Part shown: positions 2,287 to 62,884 of the stretch, piece by piece
Layout: every line of letters starts with the position of its first letter
Numbering within the stretch: position 1 is the stretch's first letter
IMG/VR virus record: IMGVR_UViG_3300037400_005125
Coordinates: 25,721 to 89,720 of that record
Length of the DNA stretch: 64,000 nucleotides
Source of the DNA: a virus
Lineage: Duplodnaviria; Caudoviricetes
Reading direction: 5' to 3' (one strand)
Notes under the pieces: generated by a model
Seen by the model: only the letters and a program-made list of their open reading frames with translations
Databases searched by the model: none
Told to the model about the DNA's origin: nothing
Made by a program: the position numbers and the translations under genes

Positions 2287-5200
2287 TTAAATATCGTCGA
2301 ATGAAACCCCCTCTGGTGTGAGGATGAAATCGATTACGATGTATTCAAGAGCATTGTAAGGCTTGAAGTAAATCTTCACTGGAAGTTCTCTTCTCTCACG
2401 TGACTCGATTGTATCGTTAATCTCAATCCTATAGTCAGAGATACCTCTGTTGCTTCTGATACTATCCATGATTGGAGTTACAGTTGACAAGAATGACTGT
2501 TTTGTAGTTGGGTCATTAGGCTCGAAGATAAGCCCAATGCAAGAGATTGCAACAAGCTTTCTCATTCTAAGAAGCAATCTACGTACTGCGATTCTGTTAA
2601 GCTGTGACTCATTAATCTGAAGGTTCTTCTGACCCCAAATCTTAGGTCCATCCTGTGCAAATGTCTTGATTGGGTTGATTCTACCATCATAAAGAACGTC
2701 CTCGTCTCCAATCTTGGTGATGAAGTGTGCTCTTACACAGTCAACATTACCTCTCTCGATACCAGCAGGTGCAAACCAAGGATATGCTGTATTGTCAGTC
2801 TGTGCGAAGTTACGAACTGCGTCCTTCGTAGCTGGCAAATAGATATACTGGTTATTATCCTGGTCAAGGTATTTAACCCAAGGATAGTAAGTACATGTGT
2901 AGTTAGAGTCAATCTCTGTATCCTCAAGGTTCGTTACAGCCTCTTCTGGTGTGTACATTTCATCAACATAGTCACCAGCACCACTTGGCTTGTCAGGAGT
3001 TGTTACAACATAGATAGAATCGGCTCTCTCTTCCTCAATCATCTCAATCGCCTCCTCAACAAGGAGCTTCTGGTTAACGTAGTCAATACCTGGAGTTGCG
3101 AATACATTGATATCTGATGCCTCTGGGTTAGCAAACTGACGGATACCACTTAAATATGCATACCAGTCAGATGTAATACCATTCTGATTCAACTGAAGCA
3201 AGTCTGGATTTTTAATCTTATTGAATGCATATCCTTCACCACTACCCTGATTGACATATCCTCTGTACTGAGACATCTTATATTCGTCGGTGTTGGTTCT
3301 TTCATCTCTGTAGTCATCCCATCCATCAAATCCACCATAGAAATATACAGTGAACTTACGAAGGTTAACATACTCGTAAATTGAGCCATACATTTCTTCT
3401 TCAGTTCCGATTACAGGTGGCTCAGAAAGTGTTGAAGTTCTAGAATCAGTTGATACACACTCGAAATTATAACCCTTATCACCATCAACTGTAAGACCAC
3501 TATACGCAGTGCCACCACCCTTATTATAGTCAATTCTTGAATCAAGGTGGAAACCGCTAGTCAAGAATGCAGGGTTGTCAATATATGCCTTGTTACCCTT
3601 GAATGTGAAATTATCTATATCAACACCAACCCAAGAAGAAAGACCGAAGTACTGTTTTCTATTCTTGATATCTGGGTCAAAGTATCTATTGTAAGCCAAG
3701 GTTGGGAACTTTATACCAGTCTTAGCATCACCAGTTATAGGAGTACCACTGTACTGAGGTATTGGATATCCCAAGAAACCTGCTGGAACTGACGTTCTAG
3801 CTGCTGTAGAATCATTTACCTCAACTGTAATATACTTAGACTTAGCCTCATACACACCATCAAATGAACCAATCTTGAATGCAATATATCCACTATCACC
3901 AGGTATCATTGTACAATGTGTGAATCTTTCAAGTATTACAGGACTCTCATCACTGTCAAATACGTTACGTACAACCACATCGAATGTACCAGCATCAGGT
4001 CTTACATTTTCAATAGAGACCTTAATTTCGTAGTTGGAATTGCTACCATCTGAAATAGTATGGAATCTAAACAATCTGTTAACCTCTACTTGCTCGTAGT
4101 CACCCTTCAAGTTAGATACTATCCAAGGAGTTGAAGCATATCTGTAAGCTGACTTATAATCGTTAAGGTCAAGTGTAACAGGAGTTATATTTTGTGTTAC
4201 ATCTGTATCTTCTTCTTTAATTGTCCTCATTTTATAATAAAGTCCATCAGCGTTGTTGAGAACAAGTGTTGCCCACTTAGCATTAACACCGATGTTAGGA
4301 TATTCTCTTTCAATTCCTCCATTCATACCACCATGTCCACCAGTAAGAAGGTTTCCATACATATTTGTTGGGTCAAGCTGCTTTCCTTTTCCTTCATCAG
4401 CATCATTATATGTCTTACAAACATTATTAACTGAGCCTGGTGAATAGAATCCATAATAGTAATGCCTCTTACCGTCCTGAGTTGTGTATTGCCTTACAGT
4501 GTAAATTTGTCCAGCAGCCATCTTAAAAATTGCTGGTATGGCGTTTGCTACTTTCTTGTCATCTTTACTAAGACCACTGAAAGAATTAAGCATAGTAGTA
4601 GATATTGCAGCTTTTGTAAAAGCAGTATTTTCCACAACGTTTCCACTATCATTAATCATACCAAGCATGTAAGGTTGACCAGTTGAATAGTCGTAAGCAA
4701 CAGAAGTGAATGCACTATCAGTTGTAGTTGCACTGTCAGCAAGGAATCTCATACCTACATGCTTTCTCTTAAGAGCAGCCTGTGGAATTGTCATGATAGC
4801 ACTAACTGGTTCATGGTGGCAATAGTCTGCTGTATAATAAACCTGGTAACCAGTAAGTTCATCATCAATCTTGGTAAGAGTTCCATCTACAATACCCTGG
4901 TCGAGTGCTACATCGTAGAGTGACTCAACGAATACATATGCGTCACCATCGTATGGCTTTGTACCAAGTACATTGAGAATGTATTCCTTATCACTTGGGT
5001 TAAGTGATACTGCGTACTCGAAATAACCAGCAACAGCCGCCTTAGCATCCTCATATGCCTTTTTAGCTACTGCAATCTGTTCTTCTGTACTTGCTGTATT
5101 ACTCAATACTGACTTATAGTTATCCCTTGCTTCTCTAACAGGTTCTAACTCAGATTCTTCATGAGAGTCTTTCCATCCAACAATCTTAAATCTTCCATGA

Positions 5201-5820
5201 TTGTATTGTGAGATATCCATATTTCCAATACCGCCATCAAGTTTATACCCCTGGCATTCATCACCGTTTGAATTGATTGGAATGTATGGTTCAATCATCA
5301 ATGCGTCAAGATTATACCCTAATTTTGAGCAATCACTAGTACCACCAGATGCACTAGCTTCACCAACATAGAATTTTAAAGTATCGTACTTTGAAGACTC
5401 ACAAGTACATGCGGTGGTAGCGCCAGTCTCAAAAGACTTATAGCTGCCACGTGAACGAAGTAGAGCAACAGCCTGTCCATTTGCTGTAACAAGCCAAGCA
5501 GGACCTGCATTATAACCACTCAAACCAAGAACACGAACAACCTTAAGTTGCTCTGACTCGCTCAAGTAAGACTTAGCGATATAAGGCAACTCGTATTTAG
5601 GGTACTGGCTTCCCTTGTATTTCTCCGTACTTGTTCCACCGAATATATCCTGGAACTCACGCCAATTGGCGATATCCATTACCTGGAAAGCAGGACCTTT
5701 CTGGGTCTCACCAACAAGACCAAGTGTTGTAATACCAAGGCTACGAACTGCGTAGTTAAGGTCTATTTCCCTTGAATAGATACCAGGTGAAACATGTATT
5801 CCTCTTGCATTATCTGCCAT
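2287..5820 (-). CDS. Contractile tail sheath protein, unusually long (1177 aa)
   Basis: N-terminal SPGIYSREIDL..GLVGETQKGP; C-terminal YPWFAPAG..RG, RINPI, WGQKNL, LNRIAVRRLL, FEPND, IYFKP..ALEYIVIDF. Confidence 0.93.
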   Translation of the reverse strand: MADNARGIHVSPGIYSREIDLNYAVRSLGITTLGLVGETQKGPAFQVMDIANWREFQDIFGGTSTEKYKGSQYPKYELPYIAKSYLSESEQLKVVRVLGLSGYNAGPAWLVTANGQAVALLRSRGSYKSFETGATTACTCESSKYDTLKFYVGEASASGGTSDCSKLGYNLDALMIEPYIPINSNGDECQGYKLDGGIGNMDISQYNHGRFKIVGWKDSHEESELEPVREARDNYKSVLSNTASTEEQIAVAKKAYEDAKAAVAGYFEYAVSLNPSDKEYILNVLGTKPYDGDAYVFVESLYDVALDQGIVDGTLTKIDDELTGYQVYYTADYCHHEPVSAIMTIPQAALKRKHVGMRFLADSATTTDSAFTSVAYDYSTGQPYMLGMINDSGNVVENTAFTKAAISTTMLNSFSGLSKDDKKVANAIPAIFKMAAGQIYTVRQYTTQDGKRHYYYGFYSPGSVNNVCKTYNDADEGKGKQLDPTNMYGNLLTGGHGGMNGGIEREYPNIGVNAKWATLVLNNADGLYYKMRTIKEEDTDVTQNITPVTLDLNDYKSAYRYASTPWIVSNLKGDYEQVEVNRLFRFHTISDGSNSNYEIKVSIENVRPDAGTFDVVVRNVFDSDESPVILERFTHCTMIPGDSGYIAFKIGSFDGVYEAKSKYITVEVNDSTAARTSVPAGFLGYPIPQYSGTPITGDAKTGIKFPTLAYNRYFDPDIKNRKQYFGLSSWVGVDIDNFTFKGNKAYIDNPAFLTSGFHLDSRIDYNKGGGTAYSGLTVDGDKGYNFECVSTDSRTSTLSEPPVIGTEEEMYGSIYEYVNLRKFTVYFYGGFDGWDDYRDERTNTDEYKMSQYRGYVNQGSGEGYAFNKIKNPDLLQLNQNGITSDWYAYLSGIRQFANPEASDINVFATPGIDYVNQKLLVEEAIEMIEEERADSIYVVTTPDKPSGAGDYVDEMYTPEEAVTNLEDTEIDSNYTCTYYPWVKYLDQDNNQYIYLPATKDAVRNFAQTDNTAYPWFAPAGIERGNVDCVRAHFITKIGDEDVLYDGRINPIKTFAQDGPKIWGQKNLQINESQLNRIAVRRLLLRMRKLVAISCIGLIFEPNDPTTKQSFLSTVTPIMDSIRSNRGISDYRIEINDTIESRERRELPVKIYFKPYNALEYIVIDFILTPEGVSFDDI

Positions 5821-5888
5821 AATTCTTAAAATATTTAATTTTTATTAGTTATTTTCGTTATATATAAATATTTAATGGTTTCCAAAGA

Positions 5889-6221
5889 TTACTTCCAAAA
5901 CTTAATTTCTGATACAATATTTACAAATTCTTCGTCCCCATGTATCATATAAACATAGTCTATAAACTTTTTAATATCAGTACAGTCAAACTCAATTTCA
6001 TTCTTCATAATTTCATTATGATATTCCTTAAGTTTTTCTATGTCACCATATTTCTTATGAAATTCATCCTGTAACAAAAACGCATAAGAAGTAATTCTTC
6101 CAACCTCTTTTAGATAGTTATAAAGCTTCAGAGCGTTCCCAAAGTCAAGATTAAATTTAAATCTAGCATCTATTTCAAGAAGTATTCTCTCAAGCGTCAT
6201 TAAATCTTTGAGTTTAATCAT
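5889..6221 (-). CDS. Hypothetical protein
   Basis: 110-aa ORF with TATTTATT motif upstream. Confidence 0.65.
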   Translation of the reverse strand: MIKLKDLMTLERILLEIDARFKFNLDFGNALKLYNYLKEVGRITSYAFLLQDEFHKKYGDIEKLKEYHNEIMKNEIEFDCTDIKKFIDYVYMIHGDEEFVNIVSEIKFWK

Positions 6222-6429
6222 AACAATTTGTTTTTATTATTAATAAATATCGCCAAATTTTTGAAAAGACATAAAAAAAAAAGGGAACGATATACTTGTT
6301 GACACAAAATAACGTTCTTACATAAGTATACAATAAATGAGGAATTATTTCAATACAGTTCATCATTTTTTTATTTAACATCAATATTTATTTAAAGAAA
6401 TAACTTAATAAATAACAAACAAAACATAT

Positions 6430-7803
6430 ATGAAATACTTAAAAAAATTCAGTACTCACTCTGAGTATGAGACATACATTAACGGTAGTGGAGCAATTCT
6501 ACCAAATGTATCAATCTGTACAACTGAAGGTGATGTGCATTATAATCCAACCGTTGCTGTAACAGGTGTATCACTTAATAAAAGTGAGTTAAGCCTTAAT
6601 AAAGGTGATTCTGAAATCTTGATAGCCACTGTATTACCAAGTAATGCAAGTAATAAATCAGTAACTTGGTCATCAAGTGATGATAGTGTATTCACTGTTA
6701 GTAATAATGGTCTTGTAACTGCTGTAGGCGATAGTGGAAATGCTAATGTAATAGCAACAACAGTTGATGGCGGATTCACAGCACAATGTGTTGCAAACAT
6801 CACACATGACTATTCACAAGACTACTTCACAATGGTGGTAACAAGTGGTGGTGATATTAAATTCAGTGGCTCAACAACAGCAAATACGCTGTCTTATTCA
6901 AAGGATAACGGTGCTAATTGGTCATCTGTAACAATTGCAGATACAATATCTGTTGTTGAAGGTGATAAGGTTCTATGGAAAGGAACGCCAACACCACAAC
7001 CATCTAAAGGTATTGGTAAGTTCATTGGTGGTACTGATGTTAGATATTCAGTAGAAGGTAATGCAATGTCATTACTGTTTGGTGATGACTTTAAAGACCA
7101 AATAAGTCTTAGTGGTAAGAATTATGCATTATATGGTTTATTCAGGGGCAACACCAATGTAACAAGTGCTGAAAACTTATCATTACTTGCAACAACGTCG
7201 ACAACTTCCTGTTATAGCTATATGTTCAGAAGTTGTACAAGTCTAACGACAGCACCTGAGTTACCTGCAACAATGTTAGCAAATGAGTGTTATAACGGTA
7301 TGTTCTATGATTGTACAAATCTAACGACAGCACCTTCTGTGTTACCTGCTACAACGTTGGCAAATAACTGTTATACCCAAATGTTTTGTGGTTGTACAAG
7401 TCTAAGGACAGCCCCTGAGTTACCAGCAACAACATTGGCAAATAACTGTTATAGCTTTATGTTCAATGGTTGTACAAGTCTAACGACAGCACCTGAGTTG
7501 CCTGCAACAATGTTAGCAAATGAGTGTTATCAAAATATGTTCCAAGATTGTACAAGTCTAACGACAGCACCTGAGTTACCCGCAACAACGTTGGTAATTA
7601 GCTGTTATAGCTTTATGTTCAGTGGTTGTACAAGTCTAAGTTCAATTAAGTGTCTTGCAACAAGCATTAGTGCACGTAACTGTACATATGATTGGGTAAA
7701 TGGTGTTGCAGCAAGTGGTACATTTACTAAGGCAGCAAGTATGAGAAGTTGGACAAAAGGTATTAGTGGTATTCCAACCAATTGGACTGTGAAAAATGCA
7801 TAG
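6430..7803 (+). CDS. Adhesin-like protein: conserved N-terminal module, Ig-like (Big_2-type) domain, about six 26-aa LRR-like repeats
   Basis: MKYLKKFSTHSEYETYING..LPNVS..VHYNP N-terminus; VTGVSLNKSELSL..VTWSSSD..VTAVG Ig motif; LTTAPELPATxLAxxCYxxMFxxCTS repeats. Confidence 0.8.
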   Translation: MKYLKKFSTHSEYETYINGSGAILPNVSICTTEGDVHYNPTVAVTGVSLNKSELSLNKGDSEILIATVLPSNASNKSVTWSSSDDSVFTVSNNGLVTAVGDSGNANVIATTVDGGFTAQCVANITHDYSQDYFTMVVTSGGDIKFSGSTTANTLSYSKDNGANWSSVTIADTISVVEGDKVLWKGTPTPQPSKGIGKFIGGTDVRYSVEGNAMSLLFGDDFKDQISLSGKNYALYGLFRGNTNVTSAENLSLLATTSTTSCYSYMFRSCTSLTTAPELPATMLANECYNGMFYDCTNLTTAPSVLPATTLANNCYTQMFCGCTSLRTAPELPATTLANNCYSFMFNGCTSLTTAPELPATMLANECYQNMFQDCTSLTTAPELPATTLVISCYSFMFSGCTSLSSIKCLATSISARNCTYDWVNGVAASGTFTKAASMRSWTKGISGIPTNWTVKNA

Positions 7804-7816
7804 TAAAATATTATAT

Positions 7817-7850
7817 AAGAGGGATAGTTCAAGTGGACTATCCTTTTATT
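7817..7850 (+). terminator. Intrinsic terminator of the cassette 1 cargo gene
   Basis: GGATAGTTC-aagt-GGACTATCC stem followed by TTTTATT. Confidence 0.65.
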
Positions 7851-8029
7851 ATGCCACTTTGTTATGTGCATACCAATGATAGTATACATCACGCTTGAAC
7901 ATCATATATTCAATATCCACAACAGTAGATAGTGACAATGCATCATAAGTTGCTGAAAGTTTTGTCCTTTCAGCAACTTTGTATATTTATTCAAAAGGAA
8001 CGACTTGTGTCAACAAGTATATCGTTCCC

Positions 8030-8059
8030 AAAAAAAAAGAGCAACCATTACAGTTGCTC
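8030..8059 (-). terminator. Intrinsic terminator of gene 8048-9445; its U-tract is the cassette 1 insertion site
   Basis: Minus strand GAGCAAC-tgtaatg-GTTGCTC-T9, directly followed by the GGGAAC TIR. Confidence 0.8.
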
Positions 8060-9445
8060 CTCATCTTCATTAGGGTTAATCAATATATGTTCTTCCTCTA
8101 TTTGTTCATCAAGCGACGATTCTGGTATATTTTCAAGGTCTATAACTGTTTCTGGGTCATAACCTATTAGAACCACACCAGACTCCGAATGAAGGTCATC
8201 CCTTGTTATTTTAACGGTTATTTCATCGTCTTTCAAAAATTTTATTTCATTATCAAGACTCATTACCTCCCCATTAACTATAAGGCTAAAATCGTGAACA
8301 TTATCAGTCTCTACTGAATCAAGAACCATATCCTTGTCAATTGTAAATGAAAGCTCAAGTGTACAATCATCAAATCTCATAAATACTTTCATTACTTTAT
8401 ACTTATATCTGTTCTCTGGGGGAACACAGCAATCATCGTTTGATTCCACTAGTTCAGCAATTTCTGGTGGAGGTGGTACTTTTTCACCAATTACTGGTAC
8501 TTCACATAACTCTGTTTTGTCTACCATAGTACTAAGGTAATGCCCCTTATGCTTTTCTGGTTCAAACATTACATCTTCTTTTGAAACCCACCAGTCTGGT
8601 TTACCTGGGTGCATACCACCTTCAGGGGCTGTTATAAACTGAACCCTTTCGTCTGGTCTCCTATTCTTTCCTCTCCTATTTATTATACCAGTTGCATCAG
8701 AATCGTGAGAAGACATAATTAGTCTTGAAGGTATTCTCTCAACCTTGTAATCTTCTCTCCTTATTATATATCCCTTCAGCTTAATCTTAAATGTCTGAGA
8801 GTAATACTTACGGTCATCAATGGTATATTCTGACTGGTCTGATATATCCTCAAGAGTCAATGGCATAGGGTGGTCATTAGGCGAAACATACACATTAATT
8901 GCGCTGAATTCATAGTGCATAAGTTCATTCATTTCATTAAGCAACTCCATCTTATTAGTGATAATAGACACAGAATACATGAAATTAACTGAGAATGGTT
9001 GTTTCATTGTGTACTTATCATATGCCTCTGTTCCATTCTCTTGTAGTACAGGAACATAAAACATTGCAAAATCCTTATGACCTGGTATGTTGAAATAACT
9101 AGACTGGTTTTCTCCCTTCTGTGGATTATTCTCACGAGTAATGGTCTTGAAATTCATTATCATGTTACCATAATCATCAGTCTGACTCCAGGTTTGTGTA
9201 TATTCGCTAAGTCTTTGCGTTGAATACAGCTTATATGTTGGAAGTCTAACACCGTCATACTCAAGGTTGAATTTCTTGTCAACCCAATTGTACATTTCCT
9301 GGTCTATGTCAGAGTACTCAATAGGTTTTGGAAATGGCGTTCCATTCTCCAATATGAGCTTTGACATGTTCCTCCTTCTTTCAACACCATATGCGTGGTG
9401 TCTTAGTCTGAGTTTATCCCTATATGGTTTTGGCTGTATTAACAT
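8048..9445 (-). CDS. Probable tail terminator / sheath-completion protein (T4 gp15-like) with C-terminal extension
   Basis: DIDQEM..W, P.SVNFMYSVSIIT.KM..LN and Y.QTFKIKLKGY pattern; near the sheath gene; family assignment from memory of the motif. Confidence 0.5.
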   Translation of the reverse strand: MLIQPKPYRDKLRLRHHAYGVERRRNMSKLILENGTPFPKPIEYSDIDQEMYNWVDKKFNLEYDGVRLPTYKLYSTQRLSEYTQTWSQTDDYGNMIMNFKTITRENNPQKGENQSSYFNIPGHKDFAMFYVPVLQENGTEAYDKYTMKQPFSVNFMYSVSIITNKMELLNEMNELMHYEFSAINVYVSPNDHPMPLTLEDISDQSEYTIDDRKYYSQTFKIKLKGYIIRREDYKVERIPSRLIMSSHDSDATGIINRRGKNRRPDERVQFITAPEGGMHPGKPDWWVSKEDVMFEPEKHKGHYLSTMVDKTELCEVPVIGEKVPPPPEIAELVESNDDCCVPPENRYKYKVMKVFMRFDDCTLELSFTIDKDMVLDSVETDNVHDFSLIVNGEVMSLDNEIKFLKDDEITVKITRDDLHSESGVVLIGYDPETVIDLENIPESSLDEQIEEEHILINPNEDEEQL

Positions 9446-26155: not shown

Positions 26156-27411
26156 ATGAGACACTGTAAGAACTATTGGAAAAATAAAAACAATGTATTT
26201 GAGGAGTCAAAAAAATATACTTCAAGGTCATCGTTTAACAAGCATTCAAGAAAGGCATATGATGAGGCAAGAAAAAATAATTGGCTTGATGAAATGACAT
26301 GGCTTATCAGTAAAAATGTGTTTGTTGATAAAGTAGATAATATTTACAGATATTATTTCAAAAATGAAAATGCTATATACATTGGTAGGACAATCTATCC
26401 AGAATTAAGGGATTATCAACATAGGACTACAGTTAACGATACTGTTTATAAATTTGCTAGTAAGAATTCCACTACCATACCACAGATGGAAGTCATAGAA
26501 ACAAACATAACAGTTCCGCAAGGTTCAAGAAAAGAAATATTTTGGGAACAGTATTATAGAGACAATGGGTATATAGTGTTAAACAAAAAAAAATGTGGTG
26601 GGGTAGGTTCTATATCAACTGGAAAATGGAGTAAATCAAAGTGCATAGAAGAATCAAAAAAATATAAAACTAGAAGTGAGTTCTCAACTGGAAATAGTAA
26701 TGCATACCAAAAATCAATAAAAGAAGGTTGGATAAATGAAATGATTTGGTTAAATAATAATAGAAAATATCCTAAAGGATTTTGGACAATAAAAGAAAAC
26801 GTGTTGGAAGAAGCAAAAAAATATAACTCAAAAAAAGAATTTGAAAAGAAAAACATTAGTGCATTTTTAGCTGCATATAGATATGGATTTATTAAAGATA
26901 TGAATTGGCTTGTAAAGCAAAAACAACACAAGAAAAATCATTGGAACGAAACTGAACTTAAATCAGAGTCAAAAAAATATTCAACTAGAACTGAATTTTC
27001 TATCAAAAACAGGGCAGCATACAATGCCGCTAAAAAACTTAGCATACTTGATGAATTATTTCCAAAACAAGAAAAAAAAAAGTTGTTGAGAGACACCCAA
27101 AAGGCTACTGGAAAAACAGGGAAAACATGATGAATGAAGCTATGAAATATTCAACCAAAGAAGAATTCCAAAAAGGAAATCTTTCTGCTTTTCTTGCAGC
27201 TCATAAATACGGCTACATAGATGAAATGTATTGGCTTGTTAAACAGAAACAACATAAAAAAGGATATTGGACTTACAAGCACATTGAAGAGGAGGCGCTA
27301 AAGTACAATACCAAGACTGAATTCTTCAAAGGAAACCAGACAGCATACCGTGCTGCATTGAAAATGGGAGTAATTGATGACTTCTTCGTTATGAATGACT
27401 ATGTGCAATAA
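26156..27411 (+). pseudogene. GIY-YIG endonuclease with tandem repeats, split by a frameshift at an A10 run (ORFs 26156-27130 and 27127-27411)
   Basis: NIYRYY..IYIGRT..R..QH..E..LN GIY-YIG motif; EAKKY..R.EF.K.N..AY..A...GW repeats continue across the shift (..ELFPKQEKK/VVERHPKGYWKNRENMMNEAMKY). Confidence 0.7.
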
Positions 27412-27466: not shown

Positions 27467-27492
27467 TTAGAGTCAACAGGTATATAGTTCCC
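27467..27492 (-). repeat. Orphan, diverged copy of the cassette terminal inverted repeat
   Basis: Minus strand GGGAACTATATACCTGTTGACTCTAA, 22/26 identical to the cassette 2 TIR at 49916; abuts the stop codon of gene 27493-28008. Confidence 0.7.
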
Positions 27493-28008
27493 TTAAAAAT
27501 TATATTTTCGTCTAAGTTCCATATATACTGCATCTGCAATTTTCATTCTCAGAGGTATTGACATAATCTGTTTGAATATCTGGGGGCATCTTGAAATAAA
27601 TTCTTCTTTCCTCCATTTTAACTGCTGATTTTGCGTCCCTCCTGGGAACATCAAAAGTCGAGGATGAAAGCAAGAAAGAGCTTCTTCCGATAATTTTTCA
27701 TCATTCATTACTGTATCAACAACGTTCTTGATGATTTCGTCGTTCCTGCCTTCCGATAATATCTTGTTTACAGATTCTTTCACAATTCTGTGAAGGTCAC
27801 TCTCTGTTAGCCTAATGATGGTTTGTTCCTCAACTTTTTCTGGAAGTCCCTTATGTTTTGTCTCGGCAAAATCCTTTACATCATCCATCGACATTCCTTT
27901 TGCAGCTTTCTTTATCTTGCTGCTTGCATTCTTCATTTCGCCCTTCTTGTATGCATCTACCATACCAAAGAACCTCTGTTGTTCTTTACTTTTACTTTTA
28001 CTTGGCAT
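27493..28008 (-). CDS. DUF3008-like N-terminus plus internal ESDLH motif
   Basis: SKSKEQQRFFGMV..KKG..MS..DVKDFAETKHKGLPEKV then IIRLTESDLHRIVKESVNKILSE. Confidence 0.65.
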   Translation of the reverse strand: MPSKSKSKEQQRFFGMVDAYKKGEMKNASSKIKKAAKGMSMDDVKDFAETKHKGLPEKVEEQTIIRLTESDLHRIVKESVNKILSEGRNDEIIKNVVDTVMNDEKLSEEALSCFHPRLLMFPGGTQNQQLKWRKEEFISRCPQIFKQIMSIPLRMKIADAVYMELRRKYNF

Positions 28009-48984: not shown

Positions 48985-49014
48985 AATGCGGTCACTGTTG
49001 ACTGCATTTTTTTT
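48985..49014 (+). terminator. Intrinsic terminator of the gp5-like gene; its U-tract is the cassette 2 insertion site
   Basis: ATGCGGTCA-ctgt-TGACTGCAT stem with T8 (49007-49014), directly followed by the GGGAA TIR. Confidence 0.8.
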
Positions 49015-49042
49015 GGGAATGATATACTTGTTGGCACTAAAA

Positions 49043-49070
49043 ATGGGTGAGCCTTAATTGGTTCACCCAT
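49043..49070 (-). terminator. Terminator of the cassette 2 cargo gene
   Basis: Minus strand ATGGGTGAACC-aattaa-GGCTCACCCAT followed by T-tract running into the TIR. Confidence 0.75.
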
Positions 49071-49082
49071 ATATTTTGTTTT

Positions 49083-49802
49083 TTAATAGCCTTTATAATT
49101 ATCGTATACATAATCGCAAAAAGATGCCCAAGCCCTTTTAAAACCACCTTCATCAGCGTTTGCAGTACTGCCATCGTAGAATAAATTTAACTCCTTATAT
49201 ATTTTATTAGCATAAATTTGGAAAAACATCCAACCAGGCATTTTACCGTTGTCATAACAATAAATAATATATTCTCCCAAATTTTTACAACCGCATTTAT
49301 ATAATCTTTCTTTTGTATATGAATCTCCTTTATACCTTAATACAATTTTTGCATGTGATTTAAGCCAGTTTAATGCATAGTCATAAATCTCGTCTTTACT
49401 CATAACATTCTCTTTAGCATCTTTATCAGCAAGTGATTGATAAATTTCTGATTCTGATTTTCTTTTTGTTTTCCCTTTTCTTGCTAATTCTGAATTTCTT
49501 AATTTTTCATCCATTTCAGCATAAGAACCTTTGTCAAATGCCGATGAACCATCAATACTTTTAGTGTTATTATCATATGCATATTTTTGAATTGGTTTGG
49601 CTGCATTATATGCTTTGCTATATCTTTCTTCATCTTTATCATCAGCAGCAGCAAGTTCATTATTGTATTTTCTACGCCAAAGTTTTCCAAGCATATATTG
49701 TCCCCTTCTTGTATCACCAATTTCATTGATTATTGTACTTATTGACTCTTTTATAATATTGTGTAAATCACTTTCAGTGAGTCTAATTTGTTTCTTATTC
49801 AT
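49083..49802 (-). CDS. Cassette 2 cargo: hypothetical protein with ESDLH leader
   Basis: MNKKQIRLTESDLHNIIKESISTIINE; TATTTATA upstream, inside the TIR. Confidence 0.75.
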   Translation of the reverse strand: MNKKQIRLTESDLHNIIKESISTIINEIGDTRRGQYMLGKLWRRKYNNELAAADDKDEERYSKAYNAAKPIQKYAYDNNTKSIDGSSAFDKGSYAEMDEKLRNSELARKGKTKRKSESEIYQSLADKDAKENVMSKDEIYDYALNWLKSHAKIVLRYKGDSYTKERLYKCGCKNLGEYIIYCYDNGKMPGWMFFQIYANKIYKELNLFYDGSTANADEGGFKRAWASFCDYVYDNYKGY

Positions 49803-50029
49803 ATTTTGAATACGTATTTATTCTATTATTTTCTATATAAATACCAGAAGATATAGAAAAACGCATCATTTTCTAACTACATTTTATAATTTAGTGCCAA
49901 CAAGTATATCGTTCCCTTTTTTTTTGTAATTTTGTTAATAGAAAATTTGCTTTTTTAACTTTTTTTATATATCTTTGCATTACAAAACGAGAGAACAAAA
50001 GAGATTGTTTAACTTAATTAATTTTATTA

Positions 50030-56706: not shown

Positions 56707-57777
56707 TTACTGTTCTACCTTTGTCCAGTTATACTTTCCTAAGTAATAATTACCTGTTCCCATCCAAGTATCATATCCACTACTACCTATTGGCACTGTT
56801 AATGTACCACCTGTTTCGACATTTTGGAACGTATTACTCTGTATTGTAGGTGCTGTTGTTGCATTAGATACTATACTTGTAAGTTCGCTACAATCTCTGA
56901 AAGCACCAATACCAATACTTGTAACGCCACTACCTATGGTACAACTTGTCATACCACTACACAATTGGAAAGCATAATTATCAATACTTGTAACACTATC
57001 TGGTATTGTTACACTTGTAAGGCTCTCACAATAATAGAAAGCATATTCACCAATACTTGTAACACCACTACCTATAGTGCAACTTATAAAACCACAACCA
57101 TAGAAAGTATAGCCACCAATACTTGTAACACCACTTGGTATGTCTATACTTGTAAGGCTATTACAATTATAGAAAGCACCATAATCAATACTTGTAACAC
57201 TATCAGGTATAGTTACACTTGTAAGACCACTACAATTTTGGAAAGCAGCGCCACCAATACTTGTAACACTATCTGGTATATCTATACTTGTAAGACTACT
57301 ACAATCCATGAAAGCGGTATCACCAATACTTGTAACACCACTACCTATTGTACAACTTGTAAGACCTTTACAATAATAGAAAGCATGACTACCAATACTT
57401 GTAACACCATCTTTTAAGTCTAGTGTAACGGTGTGTTCATTTGTATCTCCAAAATCATATGTACTTACAACTGATTGCTGTTCAACACCATCAATTTTCA
57501 TTGATTCAATTGATTCAATGAACTCGTCAGAAAATAATTGTGTTGAATTTCCCTCTCCAGAACCATTACCTGAGCCACTACCTGAACCTCCACCTGTTGG
57601 AACATATACACAAGTTAATGTTGCTGTCTGTGGTGTTGGTGGTACGGGTGTACTTGGATTATAACGTACTGTATTATTCTCCACTGTAAGTGATACATTA
57701 GGTAGTATTACCCCACTACCATTAATGTAGGTTTCGTACTCAGCATTAGTGCTGAATTTCTTTAAATACTTTGCCAT
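56707..57777 (-). CDS. BspA/LRR_5 adhesin paralog A (8 LRRs, C-cap type GNYYLG.YNWTKVEQ)
   Basis: MAKYLKKFSTNAEYETYING N-module; 23-aa VTSIGxxAFxxCxxLTSxxIPD repeats. Confidence 0.85.
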   Translation of the reverse strand: MAKYLKKFSTNAEYETYINGSGVILPNVSLTVENNTVRYNPSTPVPPTPQTATLTCVYVPTGGGSGSGSGNGSGEGNSTQLFSDEFIESIESMKIDGVEQQSVVSTYDFGDTNEHTVTLDLKDGVTSIGSHAFYYCKGLTSCTIGSGVTSIGDTAFMDCSSLTSIDIPDSVTSIGGAAFQNCSGLTSVTIPDSVTSIDYGAFYNCNSLTSIDIPSGVTSIGGYTFYGCGFISCTIGSGVTSIGEYAFYYCESLTSVTIPDSVTSIDNYAFQLCSGMTSCTIGSGVTSIGIGAFRDCSELTSIVSNATTAPTIQSNTFQNVETGGTLTVPIGSSGYDTWMGTGNYYLGKYNWTKVEQ

Positions 57778-61270: not shown

Positions 61271-62884
61271 TTATGAACAACTTCCTGGTATTGCTTGTAT
61301 TCTACTTGCATAAGTGCTCCAATAACTTGCCTCCTTATATGTATCTACACTGTTACATGGAACATAGATTGGACAATTATTGGTGTAGTCAAATACCCCT
61401 GAACCTAATGTTGGAGGCACTATTGCATTACATATTATGCTTGTAAGACCAGTACAATATTGGAAAACAGCAGTACCGATACTTGTAACACCACTACCTA
61501 TTGTAACACTTGTAAGACTAGTACATCTAATGAAAGCACCACTACCAATACTTGTAACACTATCTGGTATATCTATACTTGTAAGATTATAACAATTAGT
61601 GAAAGCACTAGCACCAATACTTGTTACACCACTACCTATAGTACAACTTGTAAGACCACTACATTGATAGAAAACATAATTACCAATGCTTGTAACACCA
61701 GTACCTATTGTAACGTTTGTAAGTCTAATACAATAAGCGAAAGCATGTTCACCAATACTTGTAACACTATCAGGTATTGTTACACTTGTAAGGCTACTAC
61801 AATAATAGAAAGCATATTCGCCAATACTTGTTACACTATCAGGTATATCTATACTTGTAAGGCCAGTACAACTTTGGAAAGCATAATTTCCGATACTCGT
61901 AACACTATCAGGGATGGTTACACTTGTAAGGCCACTACAACAATAGAAAGCACTACTGCCAATACTTGTAACGCCACTACCTATGGTACAACTTGTCATA
62001 CCACTACACAATTGGAAAGCACTACTACCAATACTTGTAACACTATCAGGTATATCTATACTTGTAAGGCTTCTACAACCACTGAAAGCAATATCACCAA
62101 TACTTGTAACACTATTAGGGATTGTTATACTTGTAAGACCACTACAATCTCTGAAAGCACCATTACCAATGCTTGTAACACTATCTGGGATTGTTATGCT
62201 TGTAAGTCCACTACAATTAGTGAAAGCACTATATCCAATAATTGTTACTCCATCAGGTATAATTACACTTGTAATACTGCTACAACTTTTGAAAGTGCTA
62301 GTATAAATACTTGTTGGGTCTTTTAATGTGTACTTAACTGTATGTTCGCCAGTTGTATTGAATCTATATGTTTTTGGTACACTTTGTTGTCTAACACCAT
62401 CTATCTCAATCTTACTGATATTAGTAGTTGCACTTAAAATTTTTGTTAATTTACTTGTATCCGTCACATTGAACTTAGCAATAAGTCTAGTGTCCTTTGG
62501 TTCTTGCGTCAATGAGTAGGTAATCTCAATGTCATGGTAATAAATGCTACCACTTATTGTTCTGCTATCAGCAGTACTTGGATTTGCACCACATTCAACA
62601 GTTACAGAATCTTCACCTTCTGTTACTGTCTCAGTGCAAGCTGTGTCCGTATCAATCTTTCTGTATCTTATTATAATATCAAATGAAGATGAAGCACCTT
62701 CAATTGTTGAAGGATAAGATGAATCAATAACCTCCCAATTAGTCATTTCCTCGCAGCCAAATGGGTTATAATGAACTTCATCTGGAGTGTCAATACAATA
62801 TGACACATTAGGAAGAATCAACCCACTTTCTACATAACTCTCATATTCAGAATGAGTGTTGAATAATTTAATGTATTTACTCAT
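61271..62884 (-). CDS. BspA/LRR_5 adhesin paralog C (13 LRRs, C-cap type CPIYVP..SRIQAIP)
   Basis: MSKYIKLFNTHSEYESY..LPNVS..VHYNP N-module; 23-aa repeats. Confidence 0.85.
   Translation of the reverse strand: MSKYIKLFNTHSEYESYVESGLILPNVSYCIDTPDEVHYNPFGCEEMTNWEVIDSSYPSTIEGASSSFDIIIRYRKIDTDTACTETVTEGEDSVTVECGANPSTADSRTISGSIYYHDIEITYSLTQEPKDTRLIAKFNVTDTSKLTKILSATTNISKIEIDGVRQQSVPKTYRFNTTGEHTVKYTLKDPTSIYTSTFKSCSSITSVIIPDGVTIIGYSAFTNCSGLTSITIPDSVTSIGNGAFRDCSGLTSITIPNSVTSIGDIAFSGCRSLTSIDIPDSVTSIGSSAFQLCSGMTSCTIGSGVTSIGSSAFYCCSGLTSVTIPDSVTSIGNYAFQSCTGLTSIDIPDSVTSIGEYAFYYCSSLTSVTIPDSVTSIGEHAFAYCIRLTNVTIGTGVTSIGNYVFYQCSGLTSCTIGSGVTSIGASAFTNCYNLTSIDIPDSVTSIGSGAFIRCTSLTSVTIGSGVTSIGTAVFQYCTGLTSIICNAIVPPTLGSGVFDYTNNCPIYVPCNSVDTYKEASYWSTYASRIQAIPGSCS

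Follow-up and report, generated by a model that had tools for sequence, protein, structure and literature searches.

The window analysed here is a stretch of 64,000 nucleotides, corresponding to bases 25721 to 89720 of an 89.7-kb viral contig with a CheckV completeness of 24%. A tail sheath of 1177 aa is encoded in the window, and the relatives of the contig by gene sharing measure 363 to 413 kb and are rated 100% complete. The source genome is therefore represented here by a fragment of a jumbo myovirus. The runs containing the contig are metagenomes from the bovine gut and other animal guts. When positions 5800 to 8600 were compared with GenBank phage records by blastn, no match was obtained.

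Two ORFs, at 5889-6221 and 8048-9445, flank a unit of 1747 bp, and no recombinase domain was found in either of them by domain searches. The unit is bounded by a perfect 25-bp inverted repeat (GGGAACGATATACTTGTTGACACAA), located at 6283-6307 on the plus strand and at 8005-8029 on the minus strand, with a run of A on either side. The initial annotation had reported the repeat and both runs, and its coordinates were exact. When up to 3 mismatches were allowed, the repeat had 4 matches in the window and none over 100 shuffles. Related insertion sequences (ISs) in which the transposase gene is intact are called siblings below. The features of the unit, hereafter cassette 1 (6273-8038), and of its right-hand border are as follows.

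6273-6282, no strand: A10 flank; it includes one copy of the target duplication, the 8 bp of which cannot be delimited within the homopolymer
6283-6307, plus strand: left terminal inverted repeat (IRL), starting with GGG; the same 25-mer ends the transposase-bearing elements in L050 and L039
6337-6372, plus strand: hairpin and T-run just inside IRL, kept in the sibling ISs; one stem mismatch here
6385-6391, plus strand: TATTTAT motif, 45 nt upstream of the passenger ATG
6430-7803, plus strand: passenger gene, 457 aa, with an N-module (about aa 1-42), a Big_2 Ig-like domain and BspA-type LRRs
7822-7843, no strand: hairpin between the convergent passenger and former transposase genes, present in the siblings too
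7852-7950, minus strand: remnant of an IS1595 transposase gene, 33 codons, covering residues 308-340 of 340 (64% identity, E 8e-8)
7947-7979, no strand: hairpin with a 13-bp stem; its counterpart in intact copies separates IRR from the start of the transposase gene
8005-8029, minus strand: right terminal inverted repeat (IRR), the perfect partner of IRL
8030-8038, no strand: A9 flank, carrying the other copy of the duplication; read on the minus strand, it forms the terminator T-tract of ORF 8048-9445
8036-8062, minus strand: hairpin of the intrinsic terminator that serves ORF 8048-9445; the cassette was inserted into the T-tract of this terminator; the same hairpin is found at the empty site in L058

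The inside of cassette 1 had been described as a single expression unit without a transposase. The first part of this description was borne out, as the TATTTAT motif is followed by the only long ORF of the cassette (Big_2, E 6e-17; BspA-type LRR_5, E 2e-6) and by the hairpin at 7822-7843. The passenger would be transcribed from a TATTTAT-type promoter inside the cassette and would yield an adhesin-like protein. The hairpin at 6337-6372 was read by eye on the aligned leaders and was not called by the terminator scan; it probably blocks read-through from outside. The second part of the description holds for an intact gene, but the C-terminal end of a transposase gene is still present at 7852-7950. 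Relative to the sibling in L039, about 1.09 kb is missing; the loss took away the leader of the transposase gene along with codons 1 to about 307 and spared the passenger. An alignment with L039 and another sibling, G001, placed the deletion junction at about 7945-7960, just left of the hairpin at 7947-7979. A similar cassette in L011 has an independent deletion. Since its breakpoints differ from those in the window, deletions of the transposase gene recur. The terminator of ORF 8048-9445 was left intact by cassette 1, which is inserted in its T-tract. Scans of the window for tRNA genes and Rfam families gave nothing, and a reading of the 25-bp repeat as a small RNA or promoter was dropped for that reason. 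A scan for sigma-70-type promoters gave hits at chance level only.

Intact siblings and family membership

The initial annotation had placed the unit among IS1595/ISXO2-family elements, in the form of a mobile insertion cassette (MIC), and had proposed a search for a DDE transposase lying between the same repeats. This search was successful. In G001 (L050, 5302-7766), L039 and L033, the same 25-bp ends surround an N-module passenger together with a convergent ORF of 339 to 340 aa. The ORF matched PF12762 (DDE_Tnp_IS1595, ISXO2-like) with an E value of 7e-44 over the full model (2-153 of 153), the zinc ribbon PF12760 at residues 24-67 (E 7e-9), and NF033547, the NCBIfam model named "IS1595 family transposase" (E 2e-59; 200.9 bits versus a cutoff of 75). 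Another element, G002 (L051, ~4749-7324), has the same passenger and transposase content as G001, and its left end is degenerate. The order of features in intact copies is IRL, hairpin, promoter, passenger, shared hairpin, convergent transposase gene with the zinc ribbon at the N terminus of its product, hairpin and IRR.

Members of the IS1595 family have GG-starting ends, an 8-bp duplication and a DDE_Tnp_IS1595 domain, and the zinc ribbon is absent only in the IS1016 group (PMC8101967). In the present lineage, the terminal inverted repeats start with GG at every end (GGGAAYGATATAC...), a DDE domain and a zinc ribbon are predicted in the siblings, and the duplications are of 8 bp (see below); judged by these sequence features, it is an IS1595 lineage. 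In cassette 1, the ends of a known IS surround an unrelated gene, and there is no functional transposase, as in a MIC. We conclude that the 1747-bp unit is almost certainly a non-autonomous derivative of a passenger-carrying IS of ~2.0 to 2.6 kb from the IS1595 family. The transposase of such an IS would bind the 25-bp ends and insert the element into AT-rich targets of 8 bp, which would be duplicated in the process.

The 19-mer core of the repeat was found in 17 stretches of viral contigs and in more than 120 stretches of metagenome contigs, and wherever two copies lay within a few kb of each other, they faced inward. In genome contigs, the 19-mer gave 18 matches versus ~9 expected by chance according to our own calculation, and matches in Peregrinibacteria, Woesearchaeota, Lachnospiraceae and other groups were set aside because the rest of the 25-mer was absent. 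The MAG contigs L039 and L033 have one IS copy per genome and no neighbours in common with the present phage. Relatives of the transposase numbered more than 2000 at an E value of ≤1e-20, and more than 100 clusters were 74 to 94% identical to it; most were on short contigs, which is typical of repeats that break assemblies. The intact IS is common in rumen and gut metagenomes of the Bacteroidales type and in their jumbo phages. Two elements bearing TnpB (L053, 4978-6327; L170, 1346-2698) also have IS1595-type terminal inverted repeats and 8-bp duplications, and an assignment of these elements to IS200/IS605 was rejected on that account, since IS200/IS605 elements have subterminal hairpins and lack both terminal inverted repeats and target duplications.

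Target duplications, empty sites and a second cassette

Duplications of 8 bp had been cited as typical of the IS family; in the window itself, the flanking runs are homopolymeric. Across the family, 15 of the 21 candidate pairs, which come from independent loci, were identical at 8/8 positions, and 16/21 were identical at 7/8 or more (shuffled-flank mean, 1.9). A further 13 pairs from metagenome contigs also matched at 7/8 or more. The targets were AT-rich with one exception, TAATCCGT.

An alignment of related phages to find the empty site had also been proposed, and empty sites were found. In L058, in which the neighbouring proteins are 84 to 99% identical, the terminator hairpin of the 465-aa gene directly abuts the sequence found beyond the cassette in the window. 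In contigs from three runs belonging to three studies, position 6272 is joined to position 8032, and a single A7 run remains. The terminator-to-promoter junction that removal of the element had been predicted to restore thus exists in near-identical phages. Cassette 1 is also absent, with the two flanking genes adjacent, from L055, L056, L057, L059 and L060, which are more distant than L058. Because its repeats are 100% identical and its site is empty in near-identical phages, the insertion of cassette 1 is judged to be young. In the run that matched the contig best, which may be the sample of origin, contigs break at the repeats, and the depth reached 330 in the repeat bins versus ~14 in the flanks, as expected of a multi-copy element. 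Duplicating 8 bp of the empty alleles, which have A7 in the run contigs and T6AT in L058, would not by itself give the run lengths of the window (A10 and A9), so that some drift in run length has to be assumed.

The same repeat family had been noticed around unrelated cargo at 49015-49916, and this observation was confirmed. The following two features of the window belong to the same repeat family.

27468-27492, minus strand: solo inverted repeat with 4 mismatches, just past the terminator of a plus-strand gene ending at 27411
49007-49925, no strand: second cassette (MIC), consisting of T8, IRL, hairpin, 239-aa ORF, IRR and T9; its site is empty in L074

Cassette 2 measures 902 bp between the outer ends of its IRL (49015-49039, plus strand) and IRR (49892-49916, minus strand), which differ from the cassette 1 pair by 3 and 2 mismatches, respectively, and are flanked by T8 and T9. 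It contains a hairpin at 49043-49070 and, on the minus strand, an ORF of 239 aa (49083-49802) with an LTESDLH leader. This ORF could not be placed in a family of Pfam or PHROG, its atlas matches were all <0.8, and no trace of a transposase was found inside the cassette. Cassette 2 is a second MIC with the same repeat family and other cargo. Like cassette 1, it is located in the T-tract of a terminator, which it has left intact. The hairpin of this terminator (48987-49006) was read by eye and was not called by the terminator scan; our guess is that it was missed because its stem can extend into the T-run. In L074, whose neighbouring genes are 99% identical, the site of cassette 2 is empty and reads GCA-T7-ATAATTTTG, versus GCA-T8-cassette-T9-GTAATTTTG in the window. 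The 89.7-kb record has 5 copies of the repeat, 4 of which are paired. The solo end at 27468-27492 has no partner repeat in the window, and the same arrangement was found in L017.

Competing explanations

A transposase-less form of the element would need the enzyme to be supplied in trans. It might be provided by the host chromosome, by a phage that infects the same cell or by an intact sibling in the remaining ~75% of the genome; in the 89.7-kb record (~24% of the genome), no intact transposase of the lineage was found, the remnant at 7852-7950 being the only trace. A transposase-less MITE of 165 bp was found at three sites with three different duplications, which indicates that trans-mobilisation occurs in this IS family. 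Transposase-less elements of 165 to 400 bp with the same ends and 8-bp duplications were present at several sites, and larger cassettes without transposase but with clean duplications carried ORFs with LTESDLH leaders (L064, L165 and L182), ORFs without an assigned function (L195 and L198) or TnpB (L053 and L170). Cassette 1 itself could have had another history, in which a complete transporter IS landed and then lost its transposase gene by deletion, so that it is now a dead relic that was never trans-mobilised. Such decay in situ competes with the trans-mobilised part of our interpretation and leaves the identity of the element untouched. It fits with the persistence of the transposase remnant, with the deletion of a like kind that arose independently in L011, and with the uniqueness of the deletion junction across the viral and metagenome collections, where a search for a second copy with a junction-specific 22-mer gave 0 matches in viral contigs and 0 in metagenome contigs. 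However, with two ends that have stayed 100% identical, the cassette can still be mobilised, and its transposase-less relatives clearly move. In addition, cassette 2, which has no transposase trace, is missing from a 99%-identical relative, and this is explained more easily by insertion as a MIC. We put the chance that cassette 1 is a relic of this kind at a little under one half, and loss of the transposase after landing and arrival as a MIC are roughly evenly balanced for this copy. Since cassette 2 has no transposase remnant, it more likely arrived as a MIC; a left-end-specific 23-mer revealed no second copy of it in viral contigs.

It had also been suggested that the phage uses the repeats as a shuttle of its own, that is, that a phage lineage moves virion genes of its own with an enzyme dedicated to this task and keeps the repeats for that purpose. 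Phage-type features of the cargo, namely TATTTAT, an N-module that also occurs in the resident adhesin array and the LTESDLH leaders, are in line with this suggestion, as is the presence of several distinct transposase-less cargoes in phage contigs. Nevertheless, the element itself encodes the enzyme, which is an ordinary IS1595 transposase, the complete relatives of 363 to 413 kb have only 1 to 3 ends each, and the element is absent from most relatives at both sites. Moreover, identical units of passenger and transposase were found beside clearly bacterial genes (for an ArsP permease, for a PALP enzyme and in a Z1/DUF4420/methylase island) and beside phage-like ones (T5orf172 and Peptidase_S74). 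The unit with the passenger P0184 has many different neighbours of both kinds, and the passenger P0166 sits within a bacterial Z1/methylase island. The copies in bacterial contexts have the same ends, and each has its own 8-bp duplication. The element is a selfish IS lineage common to bacteria and phages, and ownership by the phage is improbable. An adhesin-type gene bracketed by inverted repeats also recalls an invertible segment, in which the repeats would be the crossover sites of an invertase that switches the adhesin on and off. Mu (G/Gin) and P1 (C/Cin) have such segments in their tail-fibre regions, where inverted repeats bracket genes of the host-recognition type; a serine invertase acts on them, the gene is split at the repeat, and there are no target duplications or empty sites. 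These properties do not apply to the cassette in the window, in which both gene and promoter lie inside the repeats, and the 8-bp duplications and precisely empty sites bear the signature of transposition. Viewed from the sheath gene, the G002 copy has the opposite orientation to the window copy, as inversion would predict, but it lies at another distance from that gene (2.6 kb) and has other neighbours, which points to a separate insertion; G001 and G002 are 84% identical inside, and their flanks cannot be aligned. Among the joints listed, which come from contigs only and so weigh little, none changed strand at the repeats, and the only other allele was the empty one. An invertible segment is thus very improbable, and it is hardly credible that the 25-mers are promoter or operator sites that bracket genes by chance. 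The AT-rich flanks, a TTGACA-like core within the repeat and the conserved sequence after the repeat in some copies would agree with such regulatory sites. Against them stand the inward orientation of all pairs, the target duplications, the empty sites and the enclosed transposase; the sequence adjacent to the repeat varies with the cargo, and unpaired copies before many genes were not seen, 4/5 copies in the 89.7 kb being paired.

Relation to known systems and the passenger genes

The IS1595-derived cassettes belong to a kind of element that is already known; what is unusual is the replicon that hosts them. Insertion sequences are considered rare in the genomes of lytic-type phages. The PeSL cassettes of T4-type phages, which Arbiol et al. 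are said to have described in 2010, resemble the present cassettes in that short conserved repeats surround accessory genes of large phages. In PeSLs, the repeats reportedly flank accessory genes in variable regions and promote their shuffling; they are said to be direct promoter/stem-loop repeats that act via recombination, and there is no transposase or target duplication, unlike here. The element had been thought to represent a new cargo-moving system. This idea was not upheld, as both transporter ISs and MICs have already been described (PMC3129680). According to the same source, transporter ISs with passenger genes are an established category (Siguier, Gagnevin & Chandler 2009, cited in PMC3129680), and MIC231, derived from IS231 of Bacillus cereus, is an established MIC (De Palmenaer et al. 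2004, cited in PMC3129680). The present lineage is like an IS1595 transporter IS in having GG ends of ~25 bp, an 8-bp duplication in AT-rich DNA and a gene inside that is not involved in transposition. It differs in that most intact copies have a modular adhesin-like passenger with a constant N-module of ~40 aa, in that its copies are found both in jumbo phage genomes and in bacterial DNA, and in that the window copy has no transposase. MICs can be mobilised in trans by the cognate enzyme, and, as in MIC231, the ends of a known IS here surround one or more non-transposition genes without a transposase. However, MIC231 belongs to the IS4 family and not to IS1595, the replicon here is a virulent-type jumbo phage, and the origin of cassette 1 is shown directly by its transposase remnant. 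Unlike MITEs, the window cassettes carry complete genes. Merlin transposons have a transposase of the same superfamily, GG-starting repeats and duplications of 8 to 9 bp, but they are eukaryotic and have no zinc ribbon (PMC8101967).

In a literature search combining IS1595 with jumbo phage, BspA, Prevotella or rumen, no account of the present lineage was found, nor was a paper describing IS1595 elements in jumbo phages. The comparisons above demonstrate activity of an IS1595 lineage, and of its derivatives without transposase, in rumen jumbo phages of ~360 to 410 kb. Near-identical phage strains are polymorphic for the presence of the element, and the T-tracts of terminators serve as harmless landing sites. 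Complete adhesin-like genes are moved in this way between phages and bacterial DNA, and this is one concrete way in which large phages can exchange their surface-binding modules. The repeated ends fragment the metagenome assemblies of these phages, and they can be used as markers for accessory gene cassettes.

The N-module of the passenger (residues 1-45) was found in at least 171 protein clusters, in which the C-terminal parts vary (LRR_5, Big_2, Lcl_C, Fib_succ_major, PF26707 and PF26182). The N terminus of the cargo had been regarded as paralogous to the adhesin array at 56.7-64 kb, and its first ~40 aa were indeed 65 to 67% identical to two resident ORFs on the minus strand, at 56707-57777 and 61271-62884, both of which belong to that array. 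In L007, a comparable adhesin array has a cassette immediately at its end. TATTTAT was found within 80 nt upstream of 17 of the 52 genes of the window, versus about 0.03 expected per 80 nt, and in most copies of the IS, also where the context is bacterial, it stands ahead of the passenger. This suggests that the passengers may be built to work in these phages. With an N-module in common with the resident array and TATTTAT before most passengers, the IS1595 lineage might even have become specialised in carrying adhesins for phage virions, a reading that we consider possible but unlikely. If the N-module docks on the virion and TATTTAT is a phage late promoter, copies in phages or in the host chromosome could give virions new binding domains of the LRR, Ig or lectin-like type. 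The IS would then spread through its usefulness to, and packaging in, jumbo phages, and the varied transposase-less cassettes with LTESDLH leaders would add another level to this traffic. In L033 and L046, a TAnnTTTG-like motif, which we take to be the Bacteroidetes-type promoter consensus, occupies the place of TATTTAT.

Promoter-type motifs and an apparent repeat protein region in the window

The motif TATTTAT was strongly enriched in the window at 18 to 55 nt before the start codon, and it was found upstream of 17 of the 52 window genes, minus-strand examples being 5820, 6221, 9445, and 62884. The genes marked in this way were structural and adhesin genes. A different motif, the Bacteroidetes-like TAnnTTTG (tatatctttgca), was present upstream of 35551 and 50030. 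The two motifs suggest that the phage has two promoter classes.

Coding was also found to run on past the listed stop of the ORF at 26156-27130, in the form of repeated modules of about 90 aa. This region (27131-27411, +) looks like a repeat protein that has been divided, either by a stop or by a change of frame.

Cargo leaders and adhesin arrays

The cargo ORFs of several transposase-less cassettes shared an N-terminal leader, M..K.IRLTESDLH.I[IV]KES. L-numbers denote contig stretches with the IS1595-type repeat or related phage loci.

Cargo ORFs with the LTESDLH leader
Window 49083-49802 (-)
L031 603-767
L165 4534-5025
L182 8637-8984
L064 2702-5491

No match for this leader was obtained in Pfam or PHROG. 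The leader was also found on further small proteins of the window phage, at 996-1202 and, internally, at 27493-28008.

In a related phage (L007 3020-7048), a 1,028-bp cassette lies directly after the final gene of an LRR adhesin array resembling that at 56.7-64 kb of the window. Its passenger consists of the N-module (the constant passenger N terminus of about 40 aa) and Lcl_C, and the duplication is ATAAAATA. Arrays of this kind might expand when an IS inserts and its ends subsequently decay.

TnpB-bearing, short, and atypical elements

Several elements between IS1595-type repeats carried a 375-aa TnpB (NF040570, 333 bits) as their sole gene, and a 165-bp MITE with repeats of this family was present at three different sites, each with a distinct 8-bp duplication.

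Elements with IS1595-type repeats
L053 4978-6327 (copy G004), TnpB element
L170 1346-2698, TnpB element
L049 ~1501-2751, TnpB element
L028 4876-5275, 400-bp remnant of a TnpB-bearing element
L021 4535-4699, MITE
L178 1594-1758, MITE
L213 284-448, MITE

This TnpB is a predicted IS200/IS605-type RNA-guided nuclease. The elements bearing it were flanked by 8-bp duplications (TAAATAAT and TTAATAGT), and tnpB had a constant orientation, its 3' end facing one repeat and followed by a conserved stretch of about 40 nt. A DDE-type TIR element, instead of IS605 or IS607, is an unusual carrier of TnpB. Further short forms of the repeat family, of 190 to 690 bp, were found in metagenome contigs.

Element copy G002 had a degenerate left end (L051 ~4749-4773), resembling the repeat only in the inner ~10 nt, and an intact transposase ORF; this copy is probably immobilized. 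One copy of the unit formed by passenger P0184 and an IS1595 transposase (L130 124-2357) was flanked by two unrelated 8-mers, TAAAAAAA and GATTGTTT, as could arise if two copies had recombined or if this short contig were chimeric.
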